From IMG/VR virus record IMGVR_UViG_3300028832_000109, positions 44,609-108,608 of that record: DNA of 64,000 nt; one strand, 5' to 3'. This document shows, one piece after another, positions 19,615 through 42,759 of this stretch. Positions within the stretch are counted from its first letter, which is position 1. Every line of letters starts with the position of its first letter. Source of the DNA: a virus (Duplodnaviria > Caudoviricetes). The notes under the pieces are model-generated. The model searched no databases, had not been told where the DNA came from, and saw only the letters and a list, made by a program, of their open reading frames with translations. The position numbers and the translations under genes were made by a program.

Positions 19615-20702
19615 CAGGACACCGCCTTTGGCACGGCAACCTCTTCCAGCGGCATCTTCCCCACCATCTGGTACTGGGCGAGGAGGAGCTGCACGTCGGC
19701 GAGGAACTCCTCGAGGGTGACCATTTGGTTGACCTGCGACTGGGTGGCACGGAGCGCCTTTCCGAGCAAGGAGGCAAACGAGATGGACAGGTAGTCAATC
19801 TGCCCGTTCGTCGGGAGCGGGATGCGTTTCTGGAAGTATACACCAAAGGGGACGTACACGCTTCGGTAGTCCTGGACATGGGTCGACAGGTAATACTGCA
19901 GCTTGCGGAAATCCATCGCAATGGTCAGCTTGTATATGTCGGCGATGGTCTGTTCCCTGATGACGTTCGGGTGGCCAACTATGCTCCCGCCGTTTTCGAG
20001 GAACGTGAGGTGCATCGCGTTAATCATCGCGCGGATGTCCGGGTAGCAAGCCGATATGGTCTCCGCCAGGGTGTCCTTGCTCCACGTCCCCTTGCTGATG
20101 TCGGTCTCGGTCTTCGCAATGTAGCGAAGCCTCTTGTATATGCGGCGCCTGTACTCGACATCGTCCTCCGAGTGGTCGAATGAAATCGGCTGGCAGCGGG
20201 AACGGATGGCCTCACGAATCTGCCAGATTGAGTTGCAGGTAAGTATAAAACGAAGGTTGGACGAGGTTGCCTCGATGAGACTCTGTAGCTTCGTGTAGAA
20301 GGAATCGGGATTGGACGGGTTGTCCGCCTCGTCGATGACGTAGTATTTCGGAAGACCGTTCCCGGACCTGTACATGCCGCCCTCCTCGATTGACTGCAGA
20401 ATCTCGGAGTCGCGCCTGGCATAGATTACCTCGCGCTCGGCGCCAAGCATCAGGGGGAACGCCATGGCCAGGCTCGTCTTCCCTGTACCGGGGGAGCCGG
20501 AATGGAATATGTAGTTGTTGTACCCGCCAAGCTTGATGGCGTTGCGTATGATGTTGTCGAGCCTTGTCGGGAGTATGATTTCGTCCAGGTTCACACCCCG
20601 ATACTTCTCCACCCAGGCACGCGTACGGTCGTCGGACACATTTACCGTTGACTGGTCGTTCTGTAAGGGCTGACCCGTTATAAGGTCCACTTCTTGTTCC
20701 AT
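19614..20702 (-). CDS. Clamp loader large subunit (gp44 / RFC-like AAA+)
   Basis: 'WVEKYR', Walker A GSPGTGKT, Walker B VIDEAD, 'RFILTCN', 'IRSRC'. Confidence 0.95.
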   Translation of the reverse strand: MEQEVDLITGQPLQNDQSTVNVSDDRTRAWVEKYRGVNLDEIILPTRLDNIIRNAIKLGGYNNYIFHSGSPGTGKTSLAMAFPLMLGAEREVIYARRDSEILQSIEEGGMYRSGNGLPKYYVIDEADNPSNPDSFYTKLQSLIEATSSNLRFILTCNSIWQIREAIRSRCQPISFDHSEDDVEYRRRIYKRLRYIAKTETDISKGTWSKDTLAETISACYPDIRAMINAMHLTFLENGGSIVGHPNVIREQTIADIYKLTIAMDFRKLQYYLSTHVQDYRSVYVPFGVYFQKRIPLPTNGQIDYLSISFASLLGKALRATQSQVNQMVTLEEFLADVQLLLAQYQMVGKMPLEEVAVPKAVS

Positions 20703-20720
20703 AGGTTATACCTCGCTACC

Positions 20721-21492: not shown

Positions 21493-24480
21493 TCAAATCA
21501 GTTCCAGCATAGCGTCGCTCTCGTCATATTCCAGCTCTTCGGGCCAGCCAACGGCGGTGAAGAGTCGCCCGATGACCTGGGCGACAGACACCTTCCACTG
21601 TTCATCCCAGTCAATATAGAACATGTCTATCAGACGCTGTGGGCAATGGTCCCCGGTATAGCAAATGATACTCACGCCGAAATCATCGTCAGCCTTCTTG
21701 ATGAATTTCATCTTTTCACCGGCGACGACCGGCTCGTACGTTTCCTGCGATAGCACGGGGTCGGTTTCGATAAGGTAGTTCCAGACCGATGCCGCCCGGC
21801 GACGCCAATCCAACTTGGCCAGCTGCTCTTGCGGAAGACGGAGTTGAATCGGGTACGGAATCGGTTCCTCCTTCATGCCGGACGGAATGGAAATCTTCGT
21901 GTAGTCGCCCTTGTCAAGGGCATCGTAGAACTCGCGCTTGATATCGAGCAATCTTTCCCGCACCGCCTTACGGTCCATGGTCTTGAGCATGAGCTTCACC
22001 ATGTCCATCATGCGTTCACGCGAGAAAAGCGTAGTGGAGCTGCGAACGATTTCCAGGCCGGTCACGGCGAAATCCGGAGTGAGCTCCATAGTACCCGTAC
22101 GTACGATGTTCCCGTCCTCGTCCTTCACCGGGTCCTTGTCAAGGTACACAATGTCTTCGTTGGATTCCGCTTCGCAGATGTACTTCTTCTTTGCCGTGAC
22201 GATGGCCTTGTATATGCACTTCTCGCGTTTCAGGAAAAGCTCGTTCTTCAGGTATCCCCAGCGGTTCGCGTAGGCGAGCATGAACTCGTCCAGTTTTTCT
22301 TCCAGTATGACGGCATCCATCATTCGGCAGAAATCCGTCAGGCGGTAGCGGTTATAGATGATGCGGTACCCGTCTCCCCACACGATACCGTCATGGAACA
22401 TAATCTTCACCTTGGTAAGACCGCTCTTCGGGTCAACAACGCGGTTTTCCGGGTCATGCCATGTATCGTGGGCATAGCGGTTGCACATGCGATTAAAGCA
22501 CTTCTTCGATGCGAGTTCTTCATCATCGGAGTTGCCAAAAGTGTACCGCTCAACTTGCTCATGCCCCTTGTACACGATGACCTCTGTGCCCGTGCCCTGT
22601 TTCTGCCGGAAATTCTCGAACAGGTCCCCGACTTTACAGTAGAATGAGTCGGTGTCGCCATGTGACATGCGCTTGTAGAGAATCTGATTGTCAACGTCCT
22701 GCACCGTTCCAAGGTAGTCCGGGTTGATTGTCGGAACGTACCCGAAAGCGTTGATGAACCGCTGGTCCGAGACGACCTCCTCGTTCAAGTAATGGGCCAG
22801 CTGCTCGATGGTGAACTTGATTAGATTGCGTCCATATGCCGTGATTGACGCGGCGTTGTCCACGTCGTAAAGCGGGAAGATGTTGGCGCCGAGCAGGCCG
22901 TATAGCGAGTTTCCAAGGACCTTGTACACCTTCTGCATCATGTCATAGATGTTGGTCATCTCGTGGTCGCCGGCCTTCTTCGCGGCCTTCATCTTATTCT
23001 TCAAGTTCGCACGGCCGTCAAAAAGGAGACGGGTAACCTTCGGGACGATTCCTTCCTTGTCCTTCCGGAAGTATACCTTGTACCGGCCGTTGTGCGTCCA
23101 CGGACTCTCTATGAGAGTAGCACGCTCTTCCGCAGTCATTATGTAGTCGAGAGGCTTAATGACCTTGGTCTCCGGGCTGGTATTGAATGTCATCATTATG
23201 GACGGGTAAAGCGAACGGTAGTCATACGAGACGAGCCACTCGTAGAAACCTGGGATGGAGTAGACAAATGCTCCGGGATACTCCTCCTTCTCCTTCAGCT
23301 TGTATGCCGGGAACACCATGTTGTTCTGGTGGAGGTAGTTCATGACGAACCCCACCAGCATCTTCTTGGACTCGAAAACGAAAGAGAACGGGACGTGGGC
23401 CTCGGCAGCAGCGGCAACGCAGAGCTGGAACATGCGCTCGTGGAGCTCGATTTTCTTCAGAAGCCTGACGTCCTGCCAGTTATACAGGATGAACTGTGAC
23501 CAGTAGTTCTTCCACGACCGATAGCCATCCGGGAGCGGGGCCTTGTGTTCGCCGCACACCTTGTTGCCGATGTAGTCGAGCTTGTACGAAGGCTCCTCGG
23601 TAAAGGTGTACTTGCGGTATAGCGCAAGGAAGTCGATAACTTCGGTACCCGCTATCTGCAGCTCGCCCTTATCTGTCATCCAGGCCTTCTTGAACTGAGC
23701 CGGGAGCCTGGACAACTGCTTGAGTTCTACGCCGAGCTGCTCGGCGCGGTTCGCCATGTACGTAGTATCGTAAGAGAAGTTCCAGCCGGAGAGTATCGCT
23801 ACCTCGTTGCGGCCTATTTCAGAGAAAAGCTGGTTGAGGAGGTCTTTCTCGGTGGCGCACAGGACGTACTTTCCGTTCTCCTTGGCCATCTCCTCCTTGA
23901 CGTAATCCTCGACATCCTTCCCGACCCCGTAGGTTATGTAGTTGTCGGTAGTCGAGAAGTAAATCGTCACACAATTAATTGGGTATTCGGCGCGGTGGGC
24001 CGCTGGAAAGCGGCCTGTAGTCTCCACCTCTATATCGAGGAAGCATATGTTGATTTTCTTCATGTCCGGCTTCAACATGCCGGTATGTTCGTAATGCTTC
24101 TGGAGGAACCTGGCCCGGGGGTCAATGTCTATCTCCGCAATCTCGTTGTGCGGCCCGCGATTGTTGTTCCAAATGTCACGTTCCTTCCTTGTATGGGCAC
24201 GAGCGACATACATGGGTTTCCCGTATATGTCAGTCATACCACATGGTATAGCGCCATACTGCCCGCGGTTTGGCGTATAGAACGTGTTAACGATGCGCTG
24301 CTGCTCCATCGTCCCGTCATCATACCACAGAAACAGGTTGTCTGTATCCCTGTCGTGGTATATGGCCGACCACATCCTGTACTGCTTCGGTGGCTCGTTA
24401 GCGGAGTATAGGCTTGCCGAGCCGATGGCAGTCTGCCAGGTGGTCTGCACCGGGTCACTAGCTGTCATTAACTGTTCCAT
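21493..24480 (-). CDS. Family B DNA polymerase (gp43-like)
   Basis: Exo motifs FLDIEV, GWNFSYD, YNWQDV; polymerase motifs DYRSLYPS, KVLGNSLYG, HGDTDS, KKKY. Confidence 0.97.
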   Translation of the reverse strand: MEQLMTASDPVQTTWQTAIGSASLYSANEPPKQYRMWSAIYHDRDTDNLFLWYDDGTMEQQRIVNTFYTPNRGQYGAIPCGMTDIYGKPMYVARAHTRKERDIWNNNRGPHNEIAEIDIDPRARFLQKHYEHTGMLKPDMKKINICFLDIEVETTGRFPAAHRAEYPINCVTIYFSTTDNYITYGVGKDVEDYVKEEMAKENGKYVLCATEKDLLNQLFSEIGRNEVAILSGWNFSYDTTYMANRAEQLGVELKQLSRLPAQFKKAWMTDKGELQIAGTEVIDFLALYRKYTFTEEPSYKLDYIGNKVCGEHKAPLPDGYRSWKNYWSQFILYNWQDVRLLKKIELHERMFQLCVAAAAEAHVPFSFVFESKKMLVGFVMNYLHQNNMVFPAYKLKEKEEYPGAFVYSIPGFYEWLVSYDYRSLYPSIMMTFNTSPETKVIKPLDYIMTAEERATLIESPWTHNGRYKVYFRKDKEGIVPKVTRLLFDGRANLKNKMKAAKKAGDHEMTNIYDMMQKVYKVLGNSLYGLLGANIFPLYDVDNAASITAYGRNLIKFTIEQLAHYLNEEVVSDQRFINAFGYVPTINPDYLGTVQDVDNQILYKRMSHGDTDSFYCKVGDLFENFRQKQGTGTEVIVYKGHEQVERYTFGNSDDEELASKKCFNRMCNRYAHDTWHDPENRVVDPKSGLTKVKIMFHDGIVWGDGYRIIYNRYRLTDFCRMMDAVILEEKLDEFMLAYANRWGYLKNELFLKREKCIYKAIVTAKKKYICEAESNEDIVYLDKDPVKDEDGNIVRTGTMELTPDFAVTGLEIVRSSTTLFSRERMMDMVKLMLKTMDRKAVRERLLDIKREFYDALDKGDYTKISIPSGMKEEPIPYPIQLRLPQEQLAKLDWRRRAASVWNYLIETDPVLSQETYEPVVAGEKMKFIKKADDDFGVSIICYTGDHCPQRLIDMFYIDWDEQWKVSVAQVIGRLFTAVGWPEELEYDESDAMLELI

Positions 24481-24495
24481 AGGTCTTTATGGAAT

Positions 24496-26716: not shown

Positions 26717-27356
26717 GACTTCCACGGCCAGCCACGAGCTGCCCATATTCAACGAATTGAGCAAGGAATCCGGACTCCCGGTAAGCGAGATAAAGGCCAG
26801 GTTCCGCAACAAGATGCTCGAACTCCATCAGGAGGCGCTCGACGACCCATCCACGCAGGTGATGGGCGGGGATTCTCAAGAAATGGTGCACAACGCAATC
26901 AACGAGTTGCGCAAGGAACTCCAGCACCCCGAAGAAACATCCAGCGACTCCGAAGAATACGATTCCATCATGGGTTTCGACCCGTCGCAGCCGGTGCCCG
27001 GTGCAGACATCTTCTCATCCGATGGCGGAGGTTTCGGAGGTGGCGGATTCGGTGGAGGGTTCGGTGGCGACATTGGCGGAACCGGTGGTGACATTGGCGG
27101 GTCTGCCGGCGGTGGATTCGGCGGAGGCATAGACAATATGGACCTCGGGTTCTCTGATGAAGGCATGGACGCCGTAAACTCCGTAGCCAGCGAAGGATAC
27201 GAAGACCCGAACATGTCCCCGGCCGAGTCGGCTGGAGAAGTAAACGCCATGTCGGAGCTCGAACCGGACATCCCGGACGGGACCGACAATACTGAAAACG
27301 GCGGTTCCGAAGAACCGCCGCCAGAAAATCCGGAACCCACCGAAGACAACGGCTAG
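26697..27356 (+). CDS. Hypothetical acidic, Gly-rich protein
   Basis: Start at MDLNLPK; GGGFGGGGFGGGFGGDIGGTGGDIGG tract. Confidence 0.7.
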   Translation: MDLNLPKTSTASHELPIFNELSKESGLPVSEIKARFRNKMLELHQEALDDPSTQVMGGDSQEMVHNAINELRKELQHPEETSSDSEEYDSIMGFDPSQPVPGADIFSSDGGGFGGGGFGGGFGGDIGGTGGDIGGSAGGGFGGGIDNMDLGFSDEGMDAVNSVASEGYEDPNMSPAESAGEVNAMSELEPDIPDGTDNTENGGSEEPPPENPEPTEDNG

Positions 27357-28576
27357 CCGCCGAAATACATGCACTTCCTTGAGAACTTTTTGTCCCTGAA
27401 CATAAGGAAGAGCCTGCCGTCCTCGCCGTAGAGCATTTCAAGGACGGCCTGTCCGGCATTCCTCACCATCATGGTGCTCACGTCCATCGGGAACATGATG
27501 CGCTTGGACGTGTCCTTCATCAGCACGCCGCTCATGGTAATCGTACCGGAATACCTGTTTTCGTGCTTGTAATGAATCTCCACCGTCTTCTCGTCAAGCG
27601 GGACGAGTTCGACCGGCGCAATCGGGTCCTTGTAGTTCAGGCCGTATATCATGTTGATGGTGGCCATCATACCGATTGTATCGAACTTCATGTATGAAGT
27701 CATCCCTTCCGAGCTTTCCGAACGCAACGTTCCTTCGCTGTACTTGTAGTTGACAGCGTACAGCTTTCCAGCAGAGCGCACCCTGCCCCGGCTCCAGTCG
27801 ATGTCGAATGTGCACAGCGGCTCGGTATTCACGAGCGGCATGATGCGGAACACGTTGACCGGTATGGATATGGCGAAATCCTTGCGGTCGGCTTCGTTCT
27901 CGGTTCCAAGCATCTTGACGAGGGAAGGCAGCGTGGCGATGCAGACCCTCTCGTTACCGGTACGGAACGAGAGCGTGCCGCCGATACGGACCAGCTCGAC
28001 CCGTTCGAACTCGTAGCAGCTCTCGAGAATCGAGGCGATGACCATCTGCTCGACCTGGATTGTCTCGTCGGTGCAGAAAGTCTCGTCCAGCTCGAACGGC
28101 TCGACGAATGGCATGCTGGCCTCGACCTCGAAGCATTGAAGCTGTTCGTTGTAGGAAGAACCGATATAGAGACGGTCGTTCGCAATCCAAAGGGACACCA
28201 GGCCTTCCTGGACACCCTTGTCGCATGCAATATAGAAATCCTGCAGGTTCACGTACACATCGTGCTCGAGGCATTCCGACTTCAACGTAGTGTCCACCAA
28301 CGCCGTCACGCCCTTCTCGGTGGTCATCTTCATGTAGACCATCCCGTCGTCATCGTTGACGAACGTCTCGAGATGAAGCCTGTTGTCCTCGGACTCGCTA
28401 GAAAAACCAATGAACGATACCGCCTCGCGGAAACCGGTTACCGTGCTGAACGTGGTAAGTTTTGGCCCCTCATCCTCTTCCTGGACAGGTTCTTCCGCCG
28501 GGGCCGTCGAGGCCTCCTGCACCGGTTCTTCCACTGGGTTGATTTCGGTTTCCTGGGTAACATCTGATTCGGCCAT
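27353..28576 (-). CDS. Possible DnaN (beta-clamp)-like protein
   Basis: ~370-aa acidic alpha/beta body in three similar-sized units; 'DVYVNLQDF', 'FAISIPVNVF', 'IMFPMD..TMM......LEMLY...RLFLM' echo beta-clamp repeats. Start MAESD after AAGGAG. Confidence 0.45.
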   Translation of the reverse strand: MAESDVTQETEINPVEEPVQEASTAPAEEPVQEEDEGPKLTTFSTVTGFREAVSFIGFSSESEDNRLHLETFVNDDDGMVYMKMTTEKGVTALVDTTLKSECLEHDVYVNLQDFYIACDKGVQEGLVSLWIANDRLYIGSSYNEQLQCFEVEASMPFVEPFELDETFCTDETIQVEQMVIASILESCYEFERVELVRIGGTLSFRTGNERVCIATLPSLVKMLGTENEADRKDFAISIPVNVFRIMPLVNTEPLCTFDIDWSRGRVRSAGKLYAVNYKYSEGTLRSESSEGMTSYMKFDTIGMMATINMIYGLNYKDPIAPVELVPLDEKTVEIHYKHENRYSGTITMSGVLMKDTSKRIMFPMDVSTMMVRNAGQAVLEMLYGEDGRLFLMFRDKKFSRKCMYFGG

Positions 28577-28622
28577 AAAATTCGCTCCTTTTCCGTTAAA
28601 ACTATGACATTTCAAGGCAACG

Positions 28623-28663: not shown

Positions 28664-30190
28664 CTAGAACAGGTTGTCCAGCGACTCGATTGCCAAGTCG
28701 GTCTTGTCCTTCCCACCGCCTTCCGCGGCATTCCCGTTCTCGGACATGTCTATCCCGGCGTTCATCTCGCCGGCATCCATCCCGCCCATGGGGCCGAACT
28801 TCTCTTGGGCGGAATCCATCAGGTCGCCCATTTCGCCGGCCCCGCCGAAATTCACGGTAGAGTCCATGTCGAGGCCTCCGTTTCCGGCAGGAGCGAAGTC
28901 GTCTTCGGGGAAAGTCATCGCGGCGGCTTCCTTGGCCACGTCGTGCATGGCGGTGCCGTCAGTATTGTAGACTTCAGGGAACCACTTCCCGAGGTCCGTC
29001 TTGAACTTGGTGACGTCGACCTTCCCGCCTTCGAGGGCGTGAGCGAACTGCTGCAGGCCCTTGATTGGAAGCACCGTGTCGAGGGCCTTGTAGTCGTCGA
29101 ATGAAAGGAACTGCTCGAGAATCTCGTCAGGAATCATGTTCTTGACACCCGGGAAGCCCTCATACCACTCGGTCGCGGATGGCTTGACACCGCCGGACTG
29201 GTTGTCGTTGATGTAGTTGATTGCGTCGGCCACAATCTGCGCCAGGTTGTCCCAGGCAGCCTGTGAAAGACCGGAGCCGTTGTCCGGGTCGCTCGGAAGG
29301 ACAAACTCACGGAATTCCATCATGTTGTCGCCATCGCCGTTGCCATCGGTCACGCCGTTTACGTCGCCCGCATTCTGCGGGTGCTCGGTACCGTCGGCCC
29401 CGTTCGGAACCTGTGGCGCGTTCGGGTCAGTGGTTGCGCCCGGTGCGGTGCTCCCGTCGGGAGGTGCGCTGAAGTCGTCCGGCCCGAAGTCTCCCCCGGC
29501 CTCGAACATGGCCACCGTGTCATTGCACACGTCAAGCAGCTTCTGCAGGCGCCAGTCAACCGATTCGTAAGCGGTGATGTTGTTTGGGTCGGAATTAGCC
29601 ACGCCGAGCGTATCGTTGAAGTCGTTTCCCGGAGTCTTCACGGCGCCTATACCGTAAGACAGGTCGTCGAGCGATGTCTCGTTCTCCTGCTGGATGAGGT
29701 TCTTCGCGTTTTCCCGGATAGACTGGGCGAAGTTCCCCTGGAACTGGTCGGAATCAAGCGCCACGTCATACAGCATGGAACGCCCGCCCTTCAAGCTCAG
29801 CTCGACGCTGATGGCGTTGTGCGCGTTGGGATATTTGAGGTTGATTGTTACCGGAACCCCGTTGCACGAGAACTCGCCGTTCAGCGAGGCCTGGTCCATG
29901 TCCATCCCGGAAAGGTTGAGCCGCATCGGGGAATACGATGTAGACGAAGTGGCCTCGGTCATAATCTTGATGCCGATGTCTTTCAGGGACAGGTAGTTCC
30001 TGTCCATGAGCAGACTCTTGTTCTCGTACGTCCGATGGTCCCAGTTCTTCCTGGTCTGGTCGCCTACGGGACCGAGAGTCCCCTTCATCATCTTCACCGT
30101 AGTGGTACGGGCCGGCTTGACCGGGCCGCTTTCCGTCTTGGTATATGCGAAAGCCTTCTGGAAGTCTTTCAGTGAAATGCCATTGCTCAC
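28664..30190 (-). CDS. Hypothetical acidic late protein
   Basis: 508 aa, GTG start, ATAAACT at 30224-30230; MTEA, AYES, MFEA, AIES motifs. Confidence 0.7.
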   Translation of the reverse strand: MSNGISLKDFQKAFAYTKTESGPVKPARTTTVKMMKGTLGPVGDQTRKNWDHRTYENKSLLMDRNYLSLKDIGIKIMTEATSSTSYSPMRLNLSGMDMDQASLNGEFSCNGVPVTINLKYPNAHNAISVELSLKGGRSMLYDVALDSDQFQGNFAQSIRENAKNLIQQENETSLDDLSYGIGAVKTPGNDFNDTLGVANSDPNNITAYESVDWRLQKLLDVCNDTVAMFEAGGDFGPDDFSAPPDGSTAPGATTDPNAPQVPNGADGTEHPQNAGDVNGVTDGNGDGDNMMEFREFVLPSDPDNGSGLSQAAWDNLAQIVADAINYINDNQSGGVKPSATEWYEGFPGVKNMIPDEILEQFLSFDDYKALDTVLPIKGLQQFAHALEGGKVDVTKFKTDLGKWFPEVYNTDGTAMHDVAKEAAAMTFPEDDFAPAGNGGLDMDSTVNFGGAGEMGDLMDSAQEKFGPMGGMDAGEMNAGIDMSENGNAAEGGGKDKTDLAIESLDNLF

Positions 30191-30239: not shown

Positions 30240-31124
30240 CTATTCCACCAGGCTTTCGTGGTTGATTTCGCCACCGTCGCTCTCCATGCCGGCAACGTAC
30301 ATGGAAATCGGGTCGGCTGGGTCGGCGCCCGGTATGTTGGAAAACGCCTTCACGGTCACCTTGTCGCGCTGGGCAGACTTGATGTGGCGAACCTCCACCT
30401 CGTAGTCCGTGTCGATGCCTTTCAGGATGTTGAAGTAGATTGCCGGAATCTTGCGGAACTTGTCGTGCGAGCTGGCGTAAGCGGCATCTATGTTGGCCGC
30501 GGCCCCCATCTTGGTGCAGTTCCTCGGGATGACGTTGGTAATCTGCTGTCCGGTTCGTCCCTTCATGTAAATGCTGACCTTGGTGTGGGTGAGCACGACG
30601 GAGACAAACTGGCAACCTGGGACCATCTTCAGCTCGTCGCACATCGTCTTCAACTCGTTGCGGTCCAGTATGACGGTAGACAGCAGGTTCATGGGGTCCT
30701 TGTCGCGGTCGCAGGGGCAGTGCCTGGACTTGGCGTCGAAACGGGTCGGGTCGGCGCATATGCTACGCGCGACCTTCGTCGCGGCCCCATCCGCGTCGTT
30801 CATGAACCTGACCATAGGGTATACGTGACCGTTCGTCAGGGTCTCGTCGAGTACGCTGACGTTTGCGACAGGATTTCCGGGAAAGCCGACGAGTTCGCAG
30901 AACCTGATGAATTCCATCATCGAGGCGACACATACCTCGTTCCCGGAAAAGTTAAGGTCGCTCGGACCAGCCGAGATGTGCAGGAAGGTCGCGGTTGTCG
31001 GCACCGTTATGCGGCACCGCCCGTTTCCCTTGAAGAACACGGTGGCCTTGGACTTGCTTACCATCGTGAGTTTTTTCAGCAGGGCAAAAAACTGCGGGCT
31101 CATTGTAATTATTTGAGGTTCCAT
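30240..31124 (-). CDS. Sliding clamp (gp45-like)
   Basis: 'MSPQFFALLKKLTMVSKS..VFFKG...EVCVASMMEFI' parallels the gp45 N-terminus (LS....ILK.F..IN..I...G...I.DL.EFL); replication operon. Confidence 0.75.
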   Translation of the reverse strand: MEPQIITMSPQFFALLKKLTMVSKSKATVFFKGNGRCRITVPTTATFLHISAGPSDLNFSGNEVCVASMMEFIRFCELVGFPGNPVANVSVLDETLTNGHVYPMVRFMNDADGAATKVARSICADPTRFDAKSRHCPCDRDKDPMNLLSTVILDRNELKTMCDELKMVPGCQFVSVVLTHTKVSIYMKGRTGQQITNVIPRNCTKMGAAANIDAAYASSHDKFRKIPAIYFNILKGIDTDYEVEVRHIKSAQRDKVTVKAFSNIPGADPADPISMYVAGMESDGGEINHESLVE

Positions 31125-31135
31125 AGGTCCATCCT

Positions 31136-33142
31136 TTAAATGTCTTCCATAGCTTTAGACTCAAAAGTAGCAATTCTGTCGATTGCCAGATTCATCTCGG
31201 TAGTTCCCGGCCGCACGTAATACTCCATCCCGGCCCAGCTGTCGACCGGTATCTGCATCATGGGCACTCCAGTCTTGCGGCATATCCCGGACAACACAGG
31301 TCCCAGCAAGCCGCGCTGGTCCCCGAGCTGCTGGAAGAACCGCATGTTATCCAGTTCCCTTATGAAGTCGCCGCGGATGGCGACGAACGGGCCGTCCATT
31401 ACCTGGACCGCGTGCGGGCCATGCCCGGAAATTCCGCGCACCTTCCGGTGCTCCCCGGTAATCTCGCTGTACAGCCCGTATTCTCCGTAGGATTCCGGGC
31501 AGCGGTCCCAGGAACCGTCCGGGAGAAGATAGCCGTACCCGAACGGGGCTACCGCGCCGACGTTGGGAGGAACCTCCTCGAGCTGCCGGTGGAACGAGGG
31601 GTCGGTTATGAACGAAGTGGCCGCGACTATGACGACCCACGATGGAGTGACCTTCACCGACTGCTGCCCGTATATCTTCAGTGCGTTGTATATCGCTCGG
31701 GCGAATGACGGCGGAATCTGCCTGCGGCCGAACGAAATGCCGCACCCGACCCTGAACAGGCACTCGTCCTTCGCGTTTGGATACTCGTCGTACCGGCCGC
31801 GGTATCCGTTCGAGCTGAACACGAAGGTCACTATCTGCGGGTCGTCGGAAAGCCGGAGCACGTCGTTACGGCTAGGACGGCTCTGCCTGGTGGCGGGTCC
31901 CCCGGAAAGCACGTTGCGTATCGCGTCAAGCCTGGCCTTCTCGGCGTGAACCTTGGCGAGTACATCTTTGCGGTGCGTGTTCCTGGCTTCCTCCGATGCC
32001 TTGAACGCCCCCGCGATTGCCGCCTCCATCTGTTCGACAGGGTTGGAGAACACCACTTCCGGCGTGGCCGACTGCACTATGCTGGAATATTTGCGGCTGG
32101 TCCTCGAGGGCTTGTGCTTGCGCACTATCTTGACATCCACGCCGGATGCGTATACCGCGTCGACATCGGACTGCAGCCATCCGCGAGGGGGTACTTTCGT
32201 GCTCCCGGTAGGCGGCACAATCTCCCCGGTCGGCAGAACTCGGCGGCATTTCCCGGATATGAACTCGTCGACCCAGCGCTCGCTCTTCATGAACTTGTAT
32301 CGGATGGCACGCCTGGTGTAGTGCTGGAATCCCTCGCAGTAGAACAGGCGCATGTTCTCCTTCTCTATCGCCTCCTCTATCTCCATGCGGGAATAGCACC
32401 ACTTCGCCGACCCGGAACCTACGGGATTGGATTGAACCTTCACTATCCCGAGCATGCGCATGTTCTCGAACTTCGCATCCCCGAATCCGGCATATACGGA
32501 AGCCACGTACGGAGAGAGGTAATCCGGGAGTGGCTCCTTCCGGTATCTCCGGCGGTCGGATTTCCGCAGGTAGGCAAGGAGCTGGGCCTTGCTGTAGAGG
32601 TATGGGCAGCGTGGCTTGCGCGGTTCGGCGGAAATAAGGCCCTTCCGGGTCTGCTCCCTGAGGTACTTGGGGGACATGTCGATGAGCAGCGCGGCGACAC
32701 GGCGGGGGACCGGGTGGGTAAGCTGCCCTACAAGATACTCGGGGAACCATTCCCGGTTGAACCGCTCGATGTCCTTGCGGTATACCGCGTTGTGCCCGGT
32801 TCGCGCCGATATGTGGGTTATCAGTTTCCCCTGCCTGACATAGCGGGTGAACTGGCGCGGAACCATGTGAAGTTCGAGCATCGCGTCCGCCAACGTAAAC
32901 TCGTGGAGAGGATGCAGGGTGTCGGGAGGCGAGACACGATACTTGGCGATGGCGTCCATCGCGGCAGCATACCGGAACATCTTCTTCCTGGCCTTGTTGT
33001 ACCTGTACGGCAGGTCGGCGAATATGCCGCTGGAACGGAGCTTATGTCCGGGAATTCCTAGGTATTTTGACAGGAATTCGAACCCGATGAATTCCGGTAC
33101 AGTGCCGCGGCGCCGGTATGCATTTTTTAGTATCGCGGGCAT
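31136..33142 (-). CDS. Tandem winged-HTH (MerR/Xis-like) array fused to a GT-A-like C-terminal domain
   Basis: About five HTH units in aa 20-335 (e.g. FTLADAMLELHMVPRQFTRYVRQGKL; VPRRVAALLIDMSPKYLREQTRKGLI); C-terminal 'VGAVAPFG...VQVMDGPFVAIRGD' resembles GT2-type domains. Confidence 0.6.
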   Translation of the reverse strand: MPAILKNAYRRRGTVPEFIGFEFLSKYLGIPGHKLRSSGIFADLPYRYNKARKKMFRYAAAMDAIAKYRVSPPDTLHPLHEFTLADAMLELHMVPRQFTRYVRQGKLITHISARTGHNAVYRKDIERFNREWFPEYLVGQLTHPVPRRVAALLIDMSPKYLREQTRKGLISAEPRKPRCPYLYSKAQLLAYLRKSDRRRYRKEPLPDYLSPYVASVYAGFGDAKFENMRMLGIVKVQSNPVGSGSAKWCYSRMEIEEAIEKENMRLFYCEGFQHYTRRAIRYKFMKSERWVDEFISGKCRRVLPTGEIVPPTGSTKVPPRGWLQSDVDAVYASGVDVKIVRKHKPSRTSRKYSSIVQSATPEVVFSNPVEQMEAAIAGAFKASEEARNTHRKDVLAKVHAEKARLDAIRNVLSGGPATRQSRPSRNDVLRLSDDPQIVTFVFSSNGYRGRYDEYPNAKDECLFRVGCGISFGRRQIPPSFARAIYNALKIYGQQSVKVTPSWVVIVAATSFITDPSFHRQLEEVPPNVGAVAPFGYGYLLPDGSWDRCPESYGEYGLYSEITGEHRKVRGISGHGPHAVQVMDGPFVAIRGDFIRELDNMRFFQQLGDQRGLLGPVLSGICRKTGVPMMQIPVDSWAGMEYYVRPGTTEMNLAIDRIATFESKAMEDI

Positions 33143-34302
33143 CAGAACAAGACCTCCGCCTTGCGAGAATTGGCGTGATTCTCCTTGTATTTCTTGATTC
33201 CCTCGAATCGCTTTGCTGCAGCTGTCTTGCTCATGTTGCCATATTTCAGCGCGAACAGCACCGCTGACCCTTCCGGTTCGCGGACCCTGGCCTCGATTAC
33301 GTCGCGGCGGACGAATCCGTCCTCGTCAAGCGGGAATTCCCCGGCCGTCACGGCAGCATTCACGTCCTTGCTGTGTATTCCTTCCCAGGTGAACCACTTG
33401 AAGCCGAGCTTGCACGTCTTCTCCCTCGCTTCCCTGGCCTTATCATCGTTGTCCCATATGACTACCACGCGGTCCTTGTGCTGCATGATGTCCGGATTCT
33501 TCATAACAAGGCTGTCGAAATGCTCGATACCGCCTATCGCTATCGCGTTATGGACGAACAGCGAGTCAACTGTACCTTCAAGGACATAGAGGGGTTCATC
33601 AAAATTAACGAAGCCGATATTGTACGCCTCCCGGTGAACCCCGGCAAAGTTCAGGTACCTCAGAGGATTCCTCTTATCAATCGCTCGAGCGTCAAACTGG
33701 CTCCACCCGCCTCCAAACCGGTAAAACGGGATAATTAGACGGTTTTTGTACTTGTTCCCGGTTGGGCGCCCATTCGCGTCAAGAATGTAATTGCCGTTGG
33801 CATCGCGGTCGAGAAATTGGTCACCCTGAAGACATACGAACCAGTCGGAATATACTTCCTCTCGTATCATACGTTCTCGGCAATAGGCCAGTGCCGCCTC
33901 GGCGAGTGGATGATTCGCCGTTATCGGGATAATCTCCCCTTCCTTGAACGGCAATGTAGTGGGAACTTCGATTCTTGCGGTCGGCGCGTTCCGGACCTCC
34001 TTGGGTTGCTTGCCCTCGTTTGGGCCAAACGCCTGAAACATTAACTGATGGTACGCAGTCTCATCACGCTCCTTCAGCCATTTTGCATAAGGAATTTTGG
34101 GCGTACACTTGTAACATACATATAACCAGGTGTCGGTATATATGTATGCCTTCTTCTTGTTTGGCTGGTCCGGGCTGCCGCATTGCGGACATACGAAGTT
34201 ATAGAACCTAGGGTTCGTGTCGTCTAAATTATAGCTCCCCAGCTGTTCCCTAATTGACGTATCGTACACCGAGGCCGGTATGTCATCAAAACTAAATGCC
34301 AT
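33142..34302 (-). CDS. DNA primase (gp61-like)
   Basis: 'YNFVCPQCG', 'CYKC', 'RLIIPF', TOPRIM 'YVLEGTVDSLF', 'WDND', 'KDVN'. Confidence 0.95.
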   Translation of the reverse strand: MAFSFDDIPASVYDTSIREQLGSYNLDDTNPRFYNFVCPQCGSPDQPNKKKAYIYTDTWLYVCYKCTPKIPYAKWLKERDETAYHQLMFQAFGPNEGKQPKEVRNAPTARIEVPTTLPFKEGEIIPITANHPLAEAALAYCRERMIREEVYSDWFVCLQGDQFLDRDANGNYILDANGRPTGNKYKNRLIIPFYRFGGGWSQFDARAIDKRNPLRYLNFAGVHREAYNIGFVNFDEPLYVLEGTVDSLFVHNAIAIGGIEHFDSLVMKNPDIMQHKDRVVVIWDNDDKAREAREKTCKLGFKWFTWEGIHSKDVNAAVTAGEFPLDEDGFVRRDVIEARVREPEGSAVLFALKYGNMSKTAAAKRFEGIKKYKENHANSRKAEVLF

Positions 34303-34364: not shown

Positions 34365-36044
34365 TTAGAACGGGAGGTCGTCGTCGCTATCGGTCTCGAC
34401 AATCGGACCATTCGGGTCCACTGCCGGAGCCCCGTTGTGCGTGAACTGCACAGGGTTGGACAGTGGTGGCGCACTTTGCGGTACGTATCCCGTGGACGCC
34501 GGCTGACCCATCGGCGCAGCGGGTGCTGCTGGCGAAGGTGTGGCAGGGGCAACGCCCATCCCGAAGTTGGGCATAGCTGCGGGCTGTGCGGTAGGCATGG
34601 CTGCTGGCTGTGCGGTAGGCATGGCTGCGGGCTGTGCGGAAGGCATAGCGGCGGGCATAGCTCCAGGCATTCCAAACCCTGCACCAGGAACGGCATTCTG
34701 TGCGGAGATACCGGCAGCGAAACCTGGGGTTGCAGGAGCCTGAGCCGGGGTGGCAGGTGCAGACGGAATGCCGACATTCATCGCATTCGGTGTCTGGGCA
34801 TATGCCGTGGTCACCGGGGCAGCGGATTCAGGAATCGGATTGGGCATAGCGCAATTCGGGATTGCTGCTTCCGCCTGACCCATAAACGCAGCGGGATTGC
34901 TATTAGTAACAATCTTTGCGTTTGCCGGAACACTCGGGATGCTGTTTTGCGGCATGGCGGCACCACCGGTGGGGAACGGCTGCGAAGCGAATGACGGAGA
35001 CAGCGGAGAGACCTGAGCCGGCTGACCAAACTGTGGCTGCTGTCCGAACTGGGGCTGCTGGCCATACTGTGGCTGCTGGCCGAACTGCTGCTGGCCGTAC
35101 TGCTGCCGACCGTATCCACCTTTAGCGGCCATCTTCTGCTGAGCGAGCTTGTTGGCTTCCTGCCAGAATTCGGCAAGGTCCTGGATAGCCTGGTCAGGTG
35201 TCGGGATGTCGTCGAAAACGAACCTCAAGTCATGGCACTGGTCAAGAAGAGCCATGATAGCATTCTCATCCGCGGCAATACCGATTGGTGCACCAGTATT
35301 CGGGTCGGTCACCTGCTTGAATGCAAGCGGGTACGACTTTTCAACGAACTTGCTGCCCTTGTATGTCGGAGCGCCCTGGCGGCCGTCGCCGTAAGTCTTG
35401 GTGGCATCCCATGCGCCAACAAGGAAGTAATCCTTTCCGTTCACGGGGTCATACGGGATGAATGCGTCGCCAGTATCAACATTGATTGTTCCCTGCTGCT
35501 GAGGCTGCTGGGCCTGCTTCTGCTTTTCCATATAATTGTCGACAGGGGTCTGGAACTGCTCGTGCTGGTACTTGGAATGGGCCCAAACCTTCACCTGGTT
35601 ATTGAGTTCGGGGTGGTTTTCGTCCTGACGAATGAGGAAGTTCCCGTACCATTCTTCTTCTGCAAGCTGGCGGAGGAATTTCTTGAGCTCCTCCTTACTG
35701 GCTCCCCGCTCCTTTGCAGCATTGTATCGAGCCCATACATCCTCGCAGTAAGGGCATGAGATAACACCGGGGATATTCTTGCAGCATTTCTTAACAAGCA
35801 TCTTCCCGGAACCCAGGTCCTTGATGCGGTGCACCAAGACGGAGGTGTAGGGGTAGGCCCTCATGTCGTGGCCAAGAGGCATTGGACGGAGAAGGGCCTT
35901 GTATGAGGGATTGTTCTTTGTTACTCTTGCACGGTAGATTCGCGGGTCTTCTGCTACGCCGCCTTGGGGTGAGACCGTCGGCATTGCTGCCGGCATCTGC
36001 ACTGTGAGCATACCCATGTTGGGTACCTGAGTATTCTGTTCCAT
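34365..36044 (-). CDS. Single-stranded DNA-binding protein (gp32-like) with long low-complexity tail
   Basis: 'CPYCE', 'YGNFLIRQDENHPELNNQVKVW', 'PYDPVNGKDY', 'PTYKGSKF'; ends DSDDDLPF. Confidence 0.88.
   Translation of the reverse strand: MEQNTQVPNMGMLTVQMPAAMPTVSPQGGVAEDPRIYRARVTKNNPSYKALLRPMPLGHDMRAYPYTSVLVHRIKDLGSGKMLVKKCCKNIPGVISCPYCEDVWARYNAAKERGASKEELKKFLRQLAEEEWYGNFLIRQDENHPELNNQVKVWAHSKYQHEQFQTPVDNYMEKQKQAQQPQQQGTINVDTGDAFIPYDPVNGKDYFLVGAWDATKTYGDGRQGAPTYKGSKFVEKSYPLAFKQVTDPNTGAPIGIAADENAIMALLDQCHDLRFVFDDIPTPDQAIQDLAEFWQEANKLAQQKMAAKGGYGRQQYGQQQFGQQPQYGQQPQFGQQPQFGQPAQVSPLSPSFASQPFPTGGAAMPQNSIPSVPANAKIVTNSNPAAFMGQAEAAIPNCAMPNPIPESAAPVTTAYAQTPNAMNVGIPSAPATPAQAPATPGFAAGISAQNAVPGAGFGMPGAMPAAMPSAQPAAMPTAQPAAMPTAQPAAMPNFGMGVAPATPSPAAPAAPMGQPASTGYVPQSAPPLSNPVQFTHNGAPAVDPNGPIVETDSDDDLPF
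34570..34660 (-). repeat. 24-bp coding tandem repeats (PAAMP[S/T]AQ) in the SSB tail
   Basis: ggcat(a/g)gctgc(g/t)ggctgtgcgg(t/a)a x3. Confidence 0.85.
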
Positions 36045-36120
36045 AGGAGATTTCCTTATAATGTGTCCGGTTTAACTTGCCGGCATTAATAAATATAGTA
36101 AAATCCAAAGACAAAAAGTG

Positions 36121-38303: not shown

Positions 38304-40013
38304 TCAGATATAGTCCGACACGGTATCGTGCACGGTCGTTTCCGCGGTATTCGATACCTCAACTCCAAGCTTGCTTACTCCGCCGGGAATGCTGGCGTTC
38401 TCCTGCTTGGAAATGGCGCGTTTCGGTCCCTGTTTCTGCCCTCGTTGTGGAGAATTGATTTGCGGTTCGACCTCGGCCATAGCCGTATTGTATGCGTTGA
38501 CCTCGTCGGCCGTCGGGCTGAACCACCGCATCTTTCGGAAATCGCACCGGGTAAGGAACATGACTAGAGCCTGTCCGAGACGGGATTTCAGGATGTAATG
38601 GCAGAACATGCCCATTGAGCGGAGTACGTCGTTCGCCGCGATGGAAATCATGAGGTCCGCCGTTTCGGCATACCCCGAGGAACCCTCGACCGACTCTATA
38701 CCAGCTTCCACGTTGTGGTAGCCGCTCCTGTTGAACTGCACGGCAGACACGCAGGCAAAGTTGCGCTCTATTGCAATGTCCCTCAACTGCTCGGCCTTCA
38801 TCACGCCGTCGTTGTACATGCTGCTCTCGGTAAGCCGACCGCGGCTGGCCGGCTTCATGATTCCGATATAGTCGACGACCAGGAGGTCGAGCTTTCCATG
38901 GGCGAGTTCGAATGAATCTATCACCGCCTCGATTTCCACCGGGGTGGTCGTGGTCTTCATGTAGCGAACGTGCAGCTGGCCCGGCTTGGCGCCGACCGTT
39001 CCTGTGGCAGCGGCCGCTGCATCGATGCGTTCGCGTATTACGTCACCGGTAAGGTTGACGACATCATACATATCAACGCCGCATATGTTGGCCGCGAGAC
39101 GCTGCCATACGTAATCTTCTGCAAGTTCCAGTGTAATGTAAAGTACGTTGAACCCGCTCTTGTATGCAAAGGCCGCCTCGCTACATAGAGTAAGCGACTT
39201 ACCGATGTTTGGCTGACCGACGAAGAGGGTCAGCGTCTTGCGGTAATAACCGCCACCGGCCATCATCCCGTTCTGGTCCGGTCTACCTGTATAGTAACGT
39301 ATTTCGTTGATGCCAGACGGTATGCACTGCTTCTGCTCGCGGAGCTTCGCCAGCGCCAGTTCGGCATCGCTGTACATGTTCAGGCCGAGGTCAGTATGCA
39401 AACTGAAATTAACGGAAGCCTGCAAACGAGGAATAAGGTCTCGTATGCCGTCCACTCGCTTGTCGTGGATGGACTCCGCCGCACTTACGAGAACTTCCTC
39501 GGAAAGACGCTCCTTGAAGAACGATTCCACCATCAGGACAACGTAGTCCTGGTGCATCGTCTGAATCGGGGTGTTGTATATGAAAATCAGCTTGTCGCGG
39601 GCCTGCAACGCGTATTCGTTGGCGCCCATCCCGGTAATCAGCTCCTGTGCAGTGGGAATCCGGTCATGTTTCTTCTCGAACATGCGCACGATTTCCACGA
39701 TTGTCCTGTTTATCGGGTCCCGGAACAGTTCCGGGCGCAGCGTATCCCTCAGCTTCGGCCCAACGGCGGCATCCTGGAAGAATACCCGTATTACCAGGTC
39801 TTCCTGAGTGAGTGCATACACCTGCTGAGGAGGCTGCAAGTAACCGGGCTGCTGCCCGTTCAACTGAGCCTGCACTACCTGATTGGCTGCCTGCACAGCG
39901 GCCAACTGGGTATTCATCGCAGGATATATCGCCTGCTGTTGTACCATAGGCGCATACGCACCCTGCATAGTTGGTTGTGGCTGCGCATACGACGGGTTAG
40001 CTAATTGTTCCAT
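38304..40013 (-). CDS. Replicative DnaB-family helicase (gp41-like)
   Basis: Walker A GQPNIGKS, 'VLYITLEL', 'LLVVDYIGIM', 'SAVQFNRSG', 'ETADLM', 'KSR'. Confidence 0.95.
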   Translation of the reverse strand: MEQLANPSYAQPQPTMQGAYAPMVQQQAIYPAMNTQLAAVQAANQVVQAQLNGQQPGYLQPPQQVYALTQEDLVIRVFFQDAAVGPKLRDTLRPELFRDPINRTIVEIVRMFEKKHDRIPTAQELITGMGANEYALQARDKLIFIYNTPIQTMHQDYVVLMVESFFKERLSEEVLVSAAESIHDKRVDGIRDLIPRLQASVNFSLHTDLGLNMYSDAELALAKLREQKQCIPSGINEIRYYTGRPDQNGMMAGGGYYRKTLTLFVGQPNIGKSLTLCSEAAFAYKSGFNVLYITLELAEDYVWQRLAANICGVDMYDVVNLTGDVIRERIDAAAAATGTVGAKPGQLHVRYMKTTTTPVEIEAVIDSFELAHGKLDLLVVDYIGIMKPASRGRLTESSMYNDGVMKAEQLRDIAIERNFACVSAVQFNRSGYHNVEAGIESVEGSSGYAETADLMISIAANDVLRSMGMFCHYILKSRLGQALVMFLTRCDFRKMRWFSPTADEVNAYNTAMAEVEPQINSPQRGQKQGPKRAISKQENASIPGGVSKLGVEVSNTAETTVHDTVSDYI

Positions 40014-40043
40014 AGGTCCACAAGTCCGTCAGTTATCTGTCGT

Positions 40044-41847: not shown

Positions 41848-42759
41848 TTATTGCCGCGGGGAGAGCAAGTCTATCATGCTCTTCATGTTAGTCCACGTCC
41901 CGCGCAGACTCATAACCGGAATCAGGAATACTGAATGATTCTGGAACTCGACCTTGCTCCAGTGGAACTTGACATCCTGCCTGAGTTCGAATGGACGATT
42001 CGCCACGAGAACGTACGGGCGGAACTGCTTATCCTTCTCACGGTCAATCACGATGACATCGTTGAGCGAAAGTACGGCCTGCCCGGTCGTCGGCTCGATG
42101 GATGTAACCGAAACGGTCGGATTCTTCCCCAGTTCGACATTAATCAGCGCGTCCCCGGACTGGCGGCTAAACATGTGGCGCCTTTCGTCGCGGACCACGC
42201 ACAGGTAGTCATGAAGGTCGAGATACCCTACCGGCTGAAACCGAGCCGGACGTTTTCCCAGGTGCCATATAAGCGACATGTACCTGGCTATCACGGGCTC
42301 GAAGAGTGCCCCATTGTTCTCGTCAAGGTGCGCCATTAGGGTGTATATGCCGGGAAAGTCCTTGGTAAGTTCGGAACAGGTTGTAATCTTCCTCCCCGCC
42401 TTGTCCTGGAACGTGTATCGTCCGGGCTCTCCCGTAAATTTCCCGGTAAACACGTATTTTCCAAAGCGATATAACGGGGAATTGAACGAATTTAGCGCCT
42501 TCGCGAAATCCAACCCATTCCCGGTGGGTATCTTGACCCGGTCAGGAAGAACGTATACCTCGACGGTCTCTCCGACCATCTTCCAGGCGTCCACGACCAC
42601 GCCGCAATCGGTCGTGTACTTCACCTTGGCTATGTGCGCGTGGAATTCCGGATGCCCGTGTATGTCGCACAGCCCCATCGACTCGCCGAGAACGATATGC
42701 CCGGCGTCAATATCGGGCATGTACACTACCTGCGTATTTCCCCGGTGCTGCAGAATCAT
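41848..42759 (-). CDS. Hypothetical protein
   Basis: 303 aa, TGATG-coupled to the gp25 fusion gene. Confidence 0.7.
   Translation of the reverse strand: MILQHRGNTQVVYMPDIDAGHIVLGESMGLCDIHGHPEFHAHIAKVKYTTDCGVVVDAWKMVGETVEVYVLPDRVKIPTGNGLDFAKALNSFNSPLYRFGKYVFTGKFTGEPGRYTFQDKAGRKITTCSELTKDFPGIYTLMAHLDENNGALFEPVIARYMSLIWHLGKRPARFQPVGYLDLHDYLCVVRDERRHMFSRQSGDALINVELGKNPTVSVTSIEPTTGQAVLSLNDVIVIDREKDKQFRPYVLVANRPFELRQDVKFHWSKVEFQNHSVFLIPVMSLRGTWTNMKSMIDLLSPRQ

Follow-up and report, generated by a model that had tools for sequence, protein, structure and literature searches.

Five winged-HTH-like units before a predicted GT-A-fold domain in a replication-module protein of uncultivated jumbo phages

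DNA-modifying transferases are usually encoded by variable accessory genes. TAGT (beta-glucosyl-HMC-alpha-glucosyltransferase) shows that enzymes of the GT-A fold can glycosylate DNA bases, and the base-J glucosyltransferase of trypanosomes is a further example; both act on bases that are already hydroxymethylated or glucosylated, and both lack an HTH array. TAGT is the GT-A fold DNA glycosyltransferase of phages T2 and T6, and the alpha-glucosyltransferase of T4 co-purifies with the gp45 clamp (PMC13216743). The T4 enzyme (PF11440) has a GT-B fold, needs DNA containing 5-hydroxymethylcytosine, has no DNA-binding array, and is not encoded by a core gene.

Metal-independent activity with a degenerate G-A-D-D motif has been described for WrtF, a GT2-like protein of the GT-A fold (PDB 9OMH; PMC12595478). 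This fucosyltransferase builds polysaccharide, and its motif still contains adjacent Asp residues. Majastridin, ORF6 of the F1-ATPase operon of Rhodobacter blasticus (PDB 2NXV, 2QGI with UDP), is a stand-alone bacterial protein of unassigned function, without an HTH array, linker helix, or replication context; according to the PDB title, it binds UDP. We take it to be a member of the Pfam family PF13712 (Glyco_tranf_2_5). Proteins of the Xis/RDF/MerR type have one winged HTH domain each, and several molecules bind repeated sites; HTH proteins of the Xis/RDF type bind DNA mostly in an architectural role.

The window analysed here is a stretch of 64,000 nucleotides from the IMG/VR virus record IMGVR_UViG_3300028832_000109. 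It encodes a protein, P0001, in which five winged-HTH-like units, a helical linker, and a GT-A domain follow each other from the N- to the C-terminus. The features of the locus are as follows.

31136..33142, minus strand: whole gene of P0001, 668 aa (ORF and translation; conserved full-length family; AlphaFold2 model)
32918..33100, minus strand: unit 1, residues 15-75, winged-HTH-like (AlphaFold2 topology; weak profile link to units 4 and 3)
32720..32917, minus strand: unit 2, residues 76-141, winged-HTH-like (AlphaFold2 topology; hhalign)
32543..32719, minus strand: unit 3, residues 142-200, best match to HTH_17, PF12728 (Pfam; hhalign)
32333..32542, minus strand: unit 4, residues 201-270, winged-HTH-like (hhalign; AlphaFold2 topology)
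32123..32332, minus strand: unit 5, residues 271-340, HTH-like by predicted topology only (AlphaFold2)
31871..32122, minus strand: basic segment, predicted long helix (368-411), and conserved basic stretch leading into the GT-A domain (AlphaFold2)
31139..31870, minus strand: predicted GT-A fold domain, residues 425-668, majastridin/Glyco_tranf_2_5-like (AlphaFold2, VIA, Foldseek, Atlas)
31601..31603, minus strand: codon of Asp514, which alone among the acidic residues is invariant in the long and short forms (invariant alignment columns A2, A3, A5)
33142..34302, minus strand: DnaG-type primase, TGATG-coupled (phrog_47, 1e-30)
30240..31124, minus strand: PCNA/sliding-clamp-like protein, 294 aa (Atlas features)

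The gene reported at 31136-33142 in a sequence-only reading of this DNA is present as an ORF of 668 aa, but it lies on the minus strand; the ORF reading found stops throughout the plus strand of this interval, and a plus-strand gene was ruled out there. The motifs quoted in that reading (SFARAIYNA, VGAVAPFG, VQVMDGPFVAIRGD, and all five HTH-like stretches) were found in the translation. The full-length family comprises 22 clusters at 39-99% identity, and more distant relatives at 23-31% identity occur on IMG/VR jumbo-phage contigs; judged by this conservation, P0001 is a real gene. Neither P0001 nor the family profiles found a match for the C-terminal domain in cultured phage genomes, PDB sequences, Pfam, PHROGs, or NCBIfam. 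The literature on majastridin, or on a phage protein combining HTH and GT-A domains, yielded nothing relevant. In cultured phages, PDB sequences, and the literature, we thus found no described protein in which excisionase-type HTHs, apparently five of them, precede a glycosyltransferase fold, and the earlier claim of an undescribed architecture stands uncontradicted. The architecture of P0001 is new, and its building blocks are individually known.

The AlphaFold2 model of the whole protein (pLDDT 80) showed five successive beta-alpha-alpha-beta-beta-alpha units in residues 15-335 (pLDDT 80-92), then the helix 368-411 and an alpha/beta domain beginning at about residue 435. The Pfam model HTH_17 matched P0001 in unit 3 only (E 6.4e-5; 23.6 bits, with the 27-bit cut-off not reached); it was matched in 11 of the 19 family members examined, with E down to 2.8e-6, and 10 of the 22 family representatives carry a precomputed PF12728 annotation. 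When the units were compared by hhalign, units 3 and 4 were linked at 95.7% probability (E 9e-9) and unit 2 was linked to units 3 and 4 at about 60% (E 8e-5), while unit 1 was linked weakly to unit 4 (E 9e-4) and unit 3 (E 4e-3). By profile comparison, then, units 1-4 are related. Unit 5 showed no profile link to them even at permissive settings; it is the best conserved N-terminal unit, with 37% identity to the distant members (units 1-4: 18-24%).

The N-terminal units look like winged HTHs of the MerR/excisionase type, which is what had been proposed for all five. The proposal gains from the HTH_17 match of unit 3 and the linkage of units 1-4, whereas for unit 5 it follows from modelled topology alone. 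With their 55-70 residues, their modelled beta-alpha-alpha-beta-beta topology, and their sequence pattern, the units resemble the winged HTHs of the Xis/RDF/MerR group (HTH_17; Pukovnik Xis gp37, PDB 4J2N), and the array gave weak profile matches to Xis gp37 (0.007), GlnR (0.019), CbpM, and RdfS. Unlike in those proteins, five units stand in one chain and are fused to an enzyme-like domain. It should be noted that the VIA search with the whole model returned, among the matches listed, GT-A folds only. The helical linker expected after the HTH units was modelled as a single helix of 44 residues (368-411) with low pLDDT, and the short relatives likewise have a charged helical stretch N-terminal to the GT-A domain; this helix may be a coiled coil or dimeriser.

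The C-terminal domain modelled alone (244 residues) reached a pLDDT of 89.6 and a pTM of 0.89. Majastridin ranked first in three structural searches. In VIA, its entries 2NXV/2QGI were the best match (Z 15.6-15.8 over 205-206 residues for the domain model, and 15.6-16.2 over 205-213 residues with the whole-model search counted in), and they led all others by about 3 Z units; majastridin is of about the same domain size, and the alignment spans nearly the whole of its 249-residue chain at an identity of only 10-11%. The next VIA matches among those listed were GT2-type transferases (Z 10-12), and of the 54 chains found at a Z of at least 8, 42 of the 50 among the matches listed were glycosyltransferases. 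The Foldseek matches (3.8e-6) from the PDB and BFVD were nearly all glycosyltransferases, and the matches in the viral structure library were phage GT-A proteins. Among the Atlas neighbours, 29 of the 30 named ones were PF13712 phage clusters (0.96-0.97, a feature similarity that provides a lead and not an alignment). The C-terminal domain is modelled as a divergent GT-A fold closest to the UDP-binding majastridin, in agreement with the GT-A/GT2-like character noticed earlier. Two outcomes could have overturned the earlier reading, a C-terminal domain of another fold and N-terminal units that are not HTHs, and on both points the results favoured it.

A sequence bridge from this domain to PF13712 was tried by profile and failed. 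Neither P0001 nor any of 18 relatives matched the PF13712 model at E up to 1; its best score, in a homologue, was 11 bits (E 0.037), the cut-off being 27 bits. No PF13712 protein was reached by exhaustive and iterated profile searches; the exhaustive search returned 42 proteins belonging to this family, its fragments, or its short forms, plus two repeat proteins, and a broader family profile brought in no new families. None of the Pfam glycosyltransferase models scored above threshold in P0001 or its relatives, and ten short forms had no glycosyltransferase match in Pfam.

The explanation that we favour, tentatively and at somewhat below an even chance, is that P0001 is a DNA-tethered sugar transferase at the replication fork, with a reduced GT-A site. 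The GT-A fold, the majastridin lead, and the PF13712 phage neighbours in Atlas speak for it, as do the HTH evidence and the T4 alpha-glucosyltransferase, TAGT, and WrtF precedents, while the failure to find a Pfam glycosyltransferase match speaks against it.

The observation that the domain has no obvious DxD was correct. The canonical motif (DxD, DxH, or ExD after beta4) was absent from its place in every member aligned, long or short: after the W-V-V-I-V strand, P0001 reads A-T-S, and its relatives read S-T-S, P-A-T, D-T-S, and similar. Asp514 (in T-D-P) sits 6-7 residues past the expected place and may still occupy the metal-binding site. Arg590 is invariant in both the long and short forms. 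In the long forms, Asp583 is invariant, His577 is near-invariant, and Asp or Glu is kept at position 608 (in L-G-D) throughout; in the short forms, Asp583 and Asp608 are not kept. By analogy, Asp608 would sit where the xED base of GT2 enzymes lies. That base belongs to inverting enzymes and is not needed if the enzyme is retaining. WrtF is a structural match of the domain (Z 10.4-11.1), and since it is active with a degenerate DxD and without metal, the missing motif is no proof of inactivity; P0001, unlike WrtF, has a single Asp several residues downstream of the motif. The C-terminal half of the GT-A domain, in which Asp514, Asp583, Arg590, His577, and the Asp/Glu608 of the long forms lie, shows the highest conservation in the protein (44%, as against 16-24% for most other segments) and favours the sugar transferase. 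The nucleotide-binding half (425-499), at 20%, is among the least conserved segments, and no Asp is conserved after beta2; both points count against it together with the absent DxD and the loss of Asp583 and Asp608 in the short forms.

The same features bear on an alternative that we consider a little less probable than the tethered transferase. Here, P0001 would be a pseudo-glycosyltransferase whose GT-A domain serves as a protein-interaction or small-ligand module, and the protein would act alongside the primase as a DNA-architectural replication factor. It could be an origin or initiator protein, a loader of helicase or primase, or an organiser associated with the clamp. One sub-clade would have acquired the HTH array, and with it the ability to bind DNA in a sequence-specific or multivalent way. 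Such a role is consistent with the missing DxD, with candidate catalytic acids that differ between the long and short forms, and with the poor conservation of the nucleotide-binding half. Gly, Pro, Trp, Tyr, and Phe account for many of the invariant positions, which fits a conserved scaffold or surface, and the weak matches to Xis gp37 and RdfS point to HTH proteins of the architectural kind. It is less easily reconciled with the invariance of Asp514 and Arg590 across both forms or with the fact that conservation peaks in the stretch from which GT-A enzymes build their active-site cleft. The window also contained no iterons or binding-site arrays, its repeats being coding repeats only, and no GT-A fold is known to us in a replication factor.

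The gene lies in a replication module with the order DnaB, gp32-like SSB, primase, P0001, PCNA-like clamp, two unknowns, and PolB. The TGATG overlap of the primase stop and the P0001 start, already pointed out in the sequence-only reading, was read directly from the DNA, and the same 1-nt overlap, in the form T(A/G)ATG, occurs in 13 of 19 related loci. This overlap of stop and start shows that P0001 and the primase are produced jointly. The clamp-like gene begins 11 nt beyond the P0001 stop and was found downstream in every locus examined. Its product had been named gp45: the adjacency is real, but the clamp identity comes from language-model features only, in which the ten best Atlas matches were all PCNA_N/PCNA_C clusters (0.93), while Pfam, PHROG, NCBIfam, and PDB sequences gave no match to this 294-aa protein. 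We regard gp45 as a reasonable lead. Conserved downstream genes of 508 and 420 aa had no identifying match.

All 27 of the 27 clamp-anchored loci of IMG/VR jumbo phages contained a gene of the P0001 family, down to 23% identity. Short relatives of 270-394 aa lack the HTH array and occupy the same position in all three cases with readable flanks; a search of cultured phages with one short form gave no relative. P0001 is a core member of the replication module in this clade of uncultivated jumbo phages; we know of no other replication module in which a protein of the GT-A fold is a constant member coupled to the primase. The replisome embedding and the primase coupling suit the favoured transferase, and the core-gene behaviour argues against it, as DNA-modifying transferases are more often accessory. 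The core gene, its fixed place between primase and clamp, also in the readable short forms, and the conserved translational coupling are what would be expected of an architectural replication factor.

The neighbourhood also bears on the possibility, which we consider improbable, that P0001 glycosylates a protein of the replisome and the HTH array is a recruiter. A target could be the Pro/Thr/Gln-rich tail of the gp32-like SSB encoded two genes upstream, in which a Pfam PT match (1e-3) and coding repeats mark a Pro/Thr-rich repeat region, and polypeptide GalNAc-transferases are among the good structural matches of the C-terminal domain (Z 11-12). However, this resemblance is generic to GT-A folds, with majastridin and GT2 enzymes scoring as well or better, nothing directly ties the SSB to P0001, and the catalytic doubts, such as the missing DxD, are the same.

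For the transferase reading, the acceptor pathway was also considered. A ThyA-type hydroxymethylase and TGT were both absent from three relatives that are 81-93% complete, and the lack of either route in near-complete relatives weighs against sugar transfer to DNA. A ThyA-family gene present in two of five genomes scored like a true thymidylate synthase (419 bits). The genome search for TET/JBP gave no match, but the controls gave none either. The Pfam models of alpha-GT (PF11440), beta-GT (PF09198), and TAGT (PF20691) matched none of 19 members at E up to 1, and PF20691 was absent from five genomes (the window genome and four relatives). The T4 alpha-glucosyltransferase, as a phage sugar transferase acting on DNA, is a possible functional analogue that has no sequence relation to P0001, and the hydroxymethylcytosine pathway that it needs was not found in the P0001 genomes. 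As the DxD is absent, the nucleotide-binding half is poorly conserved, and no hydroxymethyl-base pathway was found, the transferase and the pseudo-glycosyltransferase stand nearly level.

If P0001 is a transferase, the HTH array would anchor it to duplex DNA, either at the fork or behind it, and two copies would pair through the helix. The GT-A domain would bind a nucleotide-sugar through a reduced site, in which the single Asp514 replaces the DxD and Arg590 takes part, with His577, Asp583, and Asp/Glu608 added in the long forms. The sugar would then go to DNA that has just been synthesised or, with lower probability, to a partner in the replisome. Such a scheme would resemble the T4 alpha-glucosyltransferase working with the gp45 clamp. 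The bolder form of this proposal, that a replisome-resident, DNA-tethered GT-A enzyme adds sugar to DNA during copying as a core function across the clade, appears unlikely to us. If true, it would call for a new acceptor or a new DNA-glycosylation chemistry, since no recognisable hydroxymethyl-base, TET/JBP, or deazaguanine pathway was found.

An active domain would imply that DNA or the replisome receives sugars during replication, in a manner that differs from that of the T-even phages; this would be relevant to phage counter-defence, and new DNA-modifying enzymes could come of it. A pseudo-enzyme would mean that a sugar-transferase scaffold was recruited as a structural replication factor, and P0001 might then fill a missing initiator or loader role in these jumbo phages.

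A last explanation, the least probable of those considered here, is a transcription regulator gated by a nucleotide-sugar or nucleotide, in which the HTH array would recognise operators of middle genes or of replication genes, with the GT-A domain as the sensor. MerR/Xis-type HTHs are common in regulators, as the GlnR and CbpM matches recall, and UDP binding by majastridin would suit a sensor. The short forms, however, lack the HTHs and keep the same position where it is readable, and the P0001 gene lies in the middle of the operon that would be its own target. An exact 10-mer common to the starts of five replisome genes could be an operator; it is absent from the P0001 and primase genes, and nothing ties the motif to P0001.

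The array gene is a 668-aa open reading frame on the minus strand at 31136-33142, where the plus strand is closed. Its neighbours all lie on one strand and are listed here in order, from the helicase to the AAA+ protein.

38304-40013, minus: DnaB-type helicase (TIGR03600, 7e-15)
after the helicase, minus: weak RuvC-like protein
after the RuvC-like gene, minus: zinc-finger protein
between the zinc-finger gene and the SSB, minus: protein without assignment
34365-36044, minus: gp32-like SSB
33142-34302, minus: DnaG-type primase (phrog_47, 1e-30)
31136-33142, minus: array gene, between the primase and the 294-aa gene
30240-31124, minus: 294-aa clamp-like protein (protein-language-model neighbours)
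28664-30190, minus: conserved 508-aa protein, usually present after the clamp-like gene in related loci
27353-28615, minus: conserved 420-aa protein, likewise usual after the clamp-like gene in related loci
21493-24480, minus: family-B DNA polymerase (PolB)
19614-20702, minus: AAA+ protein

The stop codon of the primase gene and the start codon of the array gene overlap in TGATG, so the coupling proposed in the sequence-only reading can be read directly in the sequence; the gene downstream begins 11 nt past the array gene stop. The same reading had placed the array gene between a primase and a sliding clamp. The primase is confirmed by its profile match, while the clamp is a lead: the 294-aa protein gave zero HMM or PDB sequence matches and is probably a clamp, as suggested by its protein-language-model neighbours, which are PCNA clusters (0.93, best 10 of 10). 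The 508-aa and 420-aa proteins, also members of the replication module, had no match in Pfam, PHROG, NCBIfam or PDB sequences. The SSB carries a long repeat tail rich in Pro, Thr, Gln and Ala (Pfam PT repeat, 1e-3), whose coding region holds 24-nt and 18-nt tandem repeats at 34570-34670 and 35021-35114.

The exact 10-mer CCTATGGAAC covers the start codons of five genes of the module, on the minus strand:

20696-20705: AAA+ protein
24474-24483: PolB
31118-31127: clamp-like gene
36038-36047: SSB
40007-40016: helicase

The window has no exact copy outside these five replication-gene starts; allowing one mismatch gives 8 matches vs 3.3 expected. The 10-mer, which is missing from the primase gene and from the array gene, could act as a common operator of translation or transcription.

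The virus record holding the window is 108.6 kb long with inverted terminal repeats and is estimated to be 26% complete; the genome is therefore jumbo-sized. The G+C content is 53-58% all along. The array protein has 22 full-length cluster representatives (39-99% identity) on contigs of up to 472 kb and farther relatives (23-31% identity) on IMG/VR contigs of 170-355 kb; it is encoded by no cultured phage of the INPHARED set. Across the 27 IMG/VR loci retrieved with the array protein, the order SSB, primase, array gene, clamp-like gene is conserved wherever the contig reaches, and in most cases the 508-aa and 420-aa genes come next. When the clamp-like protein was used as the query, each of the 27 loci obtained had the array gene immediately upstream and in the same orientation, indicating a core gene of the module rather than one carried now and then. 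A one-base T(A/G)ATG overlap joins it to the primase gene in 13 of the 19 related loci examined; the others have gaps of 0-6 nt or an inserted small ORF, such as the ~55-aa ORF that breaks the stop/start overlap in two related phages (L010:5780-5962 and L011:5779-5962).

The full-length model (pLDDT 80; 80-92 across most of residues 20-340) contains five successive beta-alpha-alpha-beta-beta-alpha units. Unit 3 of the window protein scored 23.6 bits against HTH_17, under the 27-bit threshold; the HTH_17 model matches 11 of 19 members of the protein family, and precomputed annotation places it on 10 of 22 relatives. Profile-profile comparison connected units 3 and 4 (95.7%), unit 2 with both of these (about 60%) and, weakly, unit 1 with unit 4 (E 9e-4); unit 5 was connected to none of them. 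Thus, the earlier description of about five MerR/excisionase-type units is fair, with four units supported by sequence and unit 5, the best conserved N-terminal unit, by predicted topology only. A joint profile of units 1-4 weakly matched mycobacteriophage Xis (0.007), GlnR (0.019), CbpM (0.083) and RdfS (0.98) among PDB sequences, alongside designed repeat proteins and further unrelated chains. Two near-identical 18-nt stretches lie in the unit 4 coding region (32342-32359 and 32450-32467; 16/18 bases, 108 nt apart). Both are partly palindromic and code E-N-M-R-(L/M); as this peptide is not kept in relatives, the pair is probably due to chance.

The C-terminal domain had been read as GT-A-like without an obvious DxD, and both points held: the predicted fold is GT-A, and the canonical DxD place reads A-T-S. 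The model of residues 425-668 (18-sequence alignment) reached pLDDT 89.6 and pTM 0.89. A structure search of 48,161 PDB representatives, independent of Foldseek, gave majastridin (2NXV) as the top match (Z 15.6, 206 residues aligned), followed by GT2-type and other GT-A transferases (Z 9-12). Foldseek returned the UDP complex 2QGI at 3.8e-6 (Z 15.8 on re-alignment) and only glycosyltransferases below it. The first matches in a viral structure library were phage 'Glycosyltransferase like family' proteins (1e-7), and 29 of the 30 named ESM-Atlas neighbours were phage PF13712 (Glyco_tranf_2_5) clusters (0.96-0.97). By its sequence the domain is isolated: no Pfam glycosyltransferase model matches it, PF13712 reached at most 11 bits in one homologue, and a profile search run exhaustively over 1.84 billion representatives returned only 42 proteins.

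The profile search also gave short forms of 270-394 aa (L039:4794-5846, L040:43-879 and L041:3448-4452; proteins P0049-P0062) on other large phage contigs of up to 381 kb, in which the same GT-A-like domain follows a charged helical N-terminus and the HTH array is missing. Wherever the flanks are readable, they lie between primase and clamp-like gene. One locus reads SSB, primase (1e-111 to the primase profile), short form, one small gene and clamp-like gene (3e-39); a second, judged by gene sizes only, reads SSB, 415-aa gene, short form, 187-, 299-, 513- and 421-aa genes and PolB; a third reads short form, small gene and clamp-like gene. A fourth short form, on short contigs, has a different, uninformative neighbourhood. 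The helix and the GT-A-like domain thus form the shared core; the HTH array was either added in one sub-clade or lost in the other.

Residues 500-640, the C-terminal half of the domain, are the best conserved stretch of the protein (44% identity to distant members, compared with 37% for unit 5 and 16-24% for most of the remaining segments). In the long forms D514, D583 and R590 are invariant, H577 is nearly so, and position 608 is always Asp or Glu, which by motif analogy with GT2 enzymes may correspond to the xED base. The short forms retain D514 and R590; in place of D583 and D608 they share a G-(F/Y)-x-H motif whose His is invariant. Across both forms only P500, W502, D514, L521, G535, G553, G570, P585, R590 and S618 are invariant. 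Since the cleft-forming half shows the strongest conservation and retains an Asp and an Arg that never vary, we rank slightly first, as a tentative reading, a GT-A enzyme tethered to DNA and acting together with the replisome. Partial precedents are T4 alpha-GT with gp45 and TAGT, itself a GT-A enzyme (PMC13216743); WrtF is an active GT-A enzyme without a working DxD (PMC12595478). Against catalysis stand the missing canonical DxD, the small set of residues invariant across both forms and the weak conservation of the nucleotide-binding half, which ranks with the least conserved parts (20% identity to distant members) and has no conserved Asp after beta2. The decay of this half, together with the core-gene behaviour, argues for a pseudo-glycosyltransferase employed in replication or DNA architecture and coupled to the primase, a possible though somewhat doubtful reading that stays close to that of the enzyme. 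Protein glycosylation is improbable, and a ligand-gated regulator would be a shade more so.

As for acceptors, neither TGT nor TAGT was found in the genomes searched, and a TET/JBP genome search gave zero matches with equally silent controls. A ThyA-family gene is present in the genome to which the window belongs (G000:C1:1318-2124, outside the window) and in one relative; it scores like a true thymidylate synthase (419 bits). Three relatives of 81-93% completeness lack the family. Ordinary GT2 genes occur at other places in the genomes of the relatives. Nothing among the window genes suggests sugar or base-modification metabolism, and no iteron-like arrays were found in the window.

The domains of the array protein are of known kinds. 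Our literature and database searches found no description of the architecture, in agreement with the sequence-only reading, and none of its constant position within a replication module. Elsewhere, the window encodes on the minus strand an Mre11/gp47-like metallophosphoesterase (9995-11104), a full DnaJ-type chaperone (49850-50854) and a 790-aa protein with a C-terminal gp25-like baseplate wedge domain (42759-45131).
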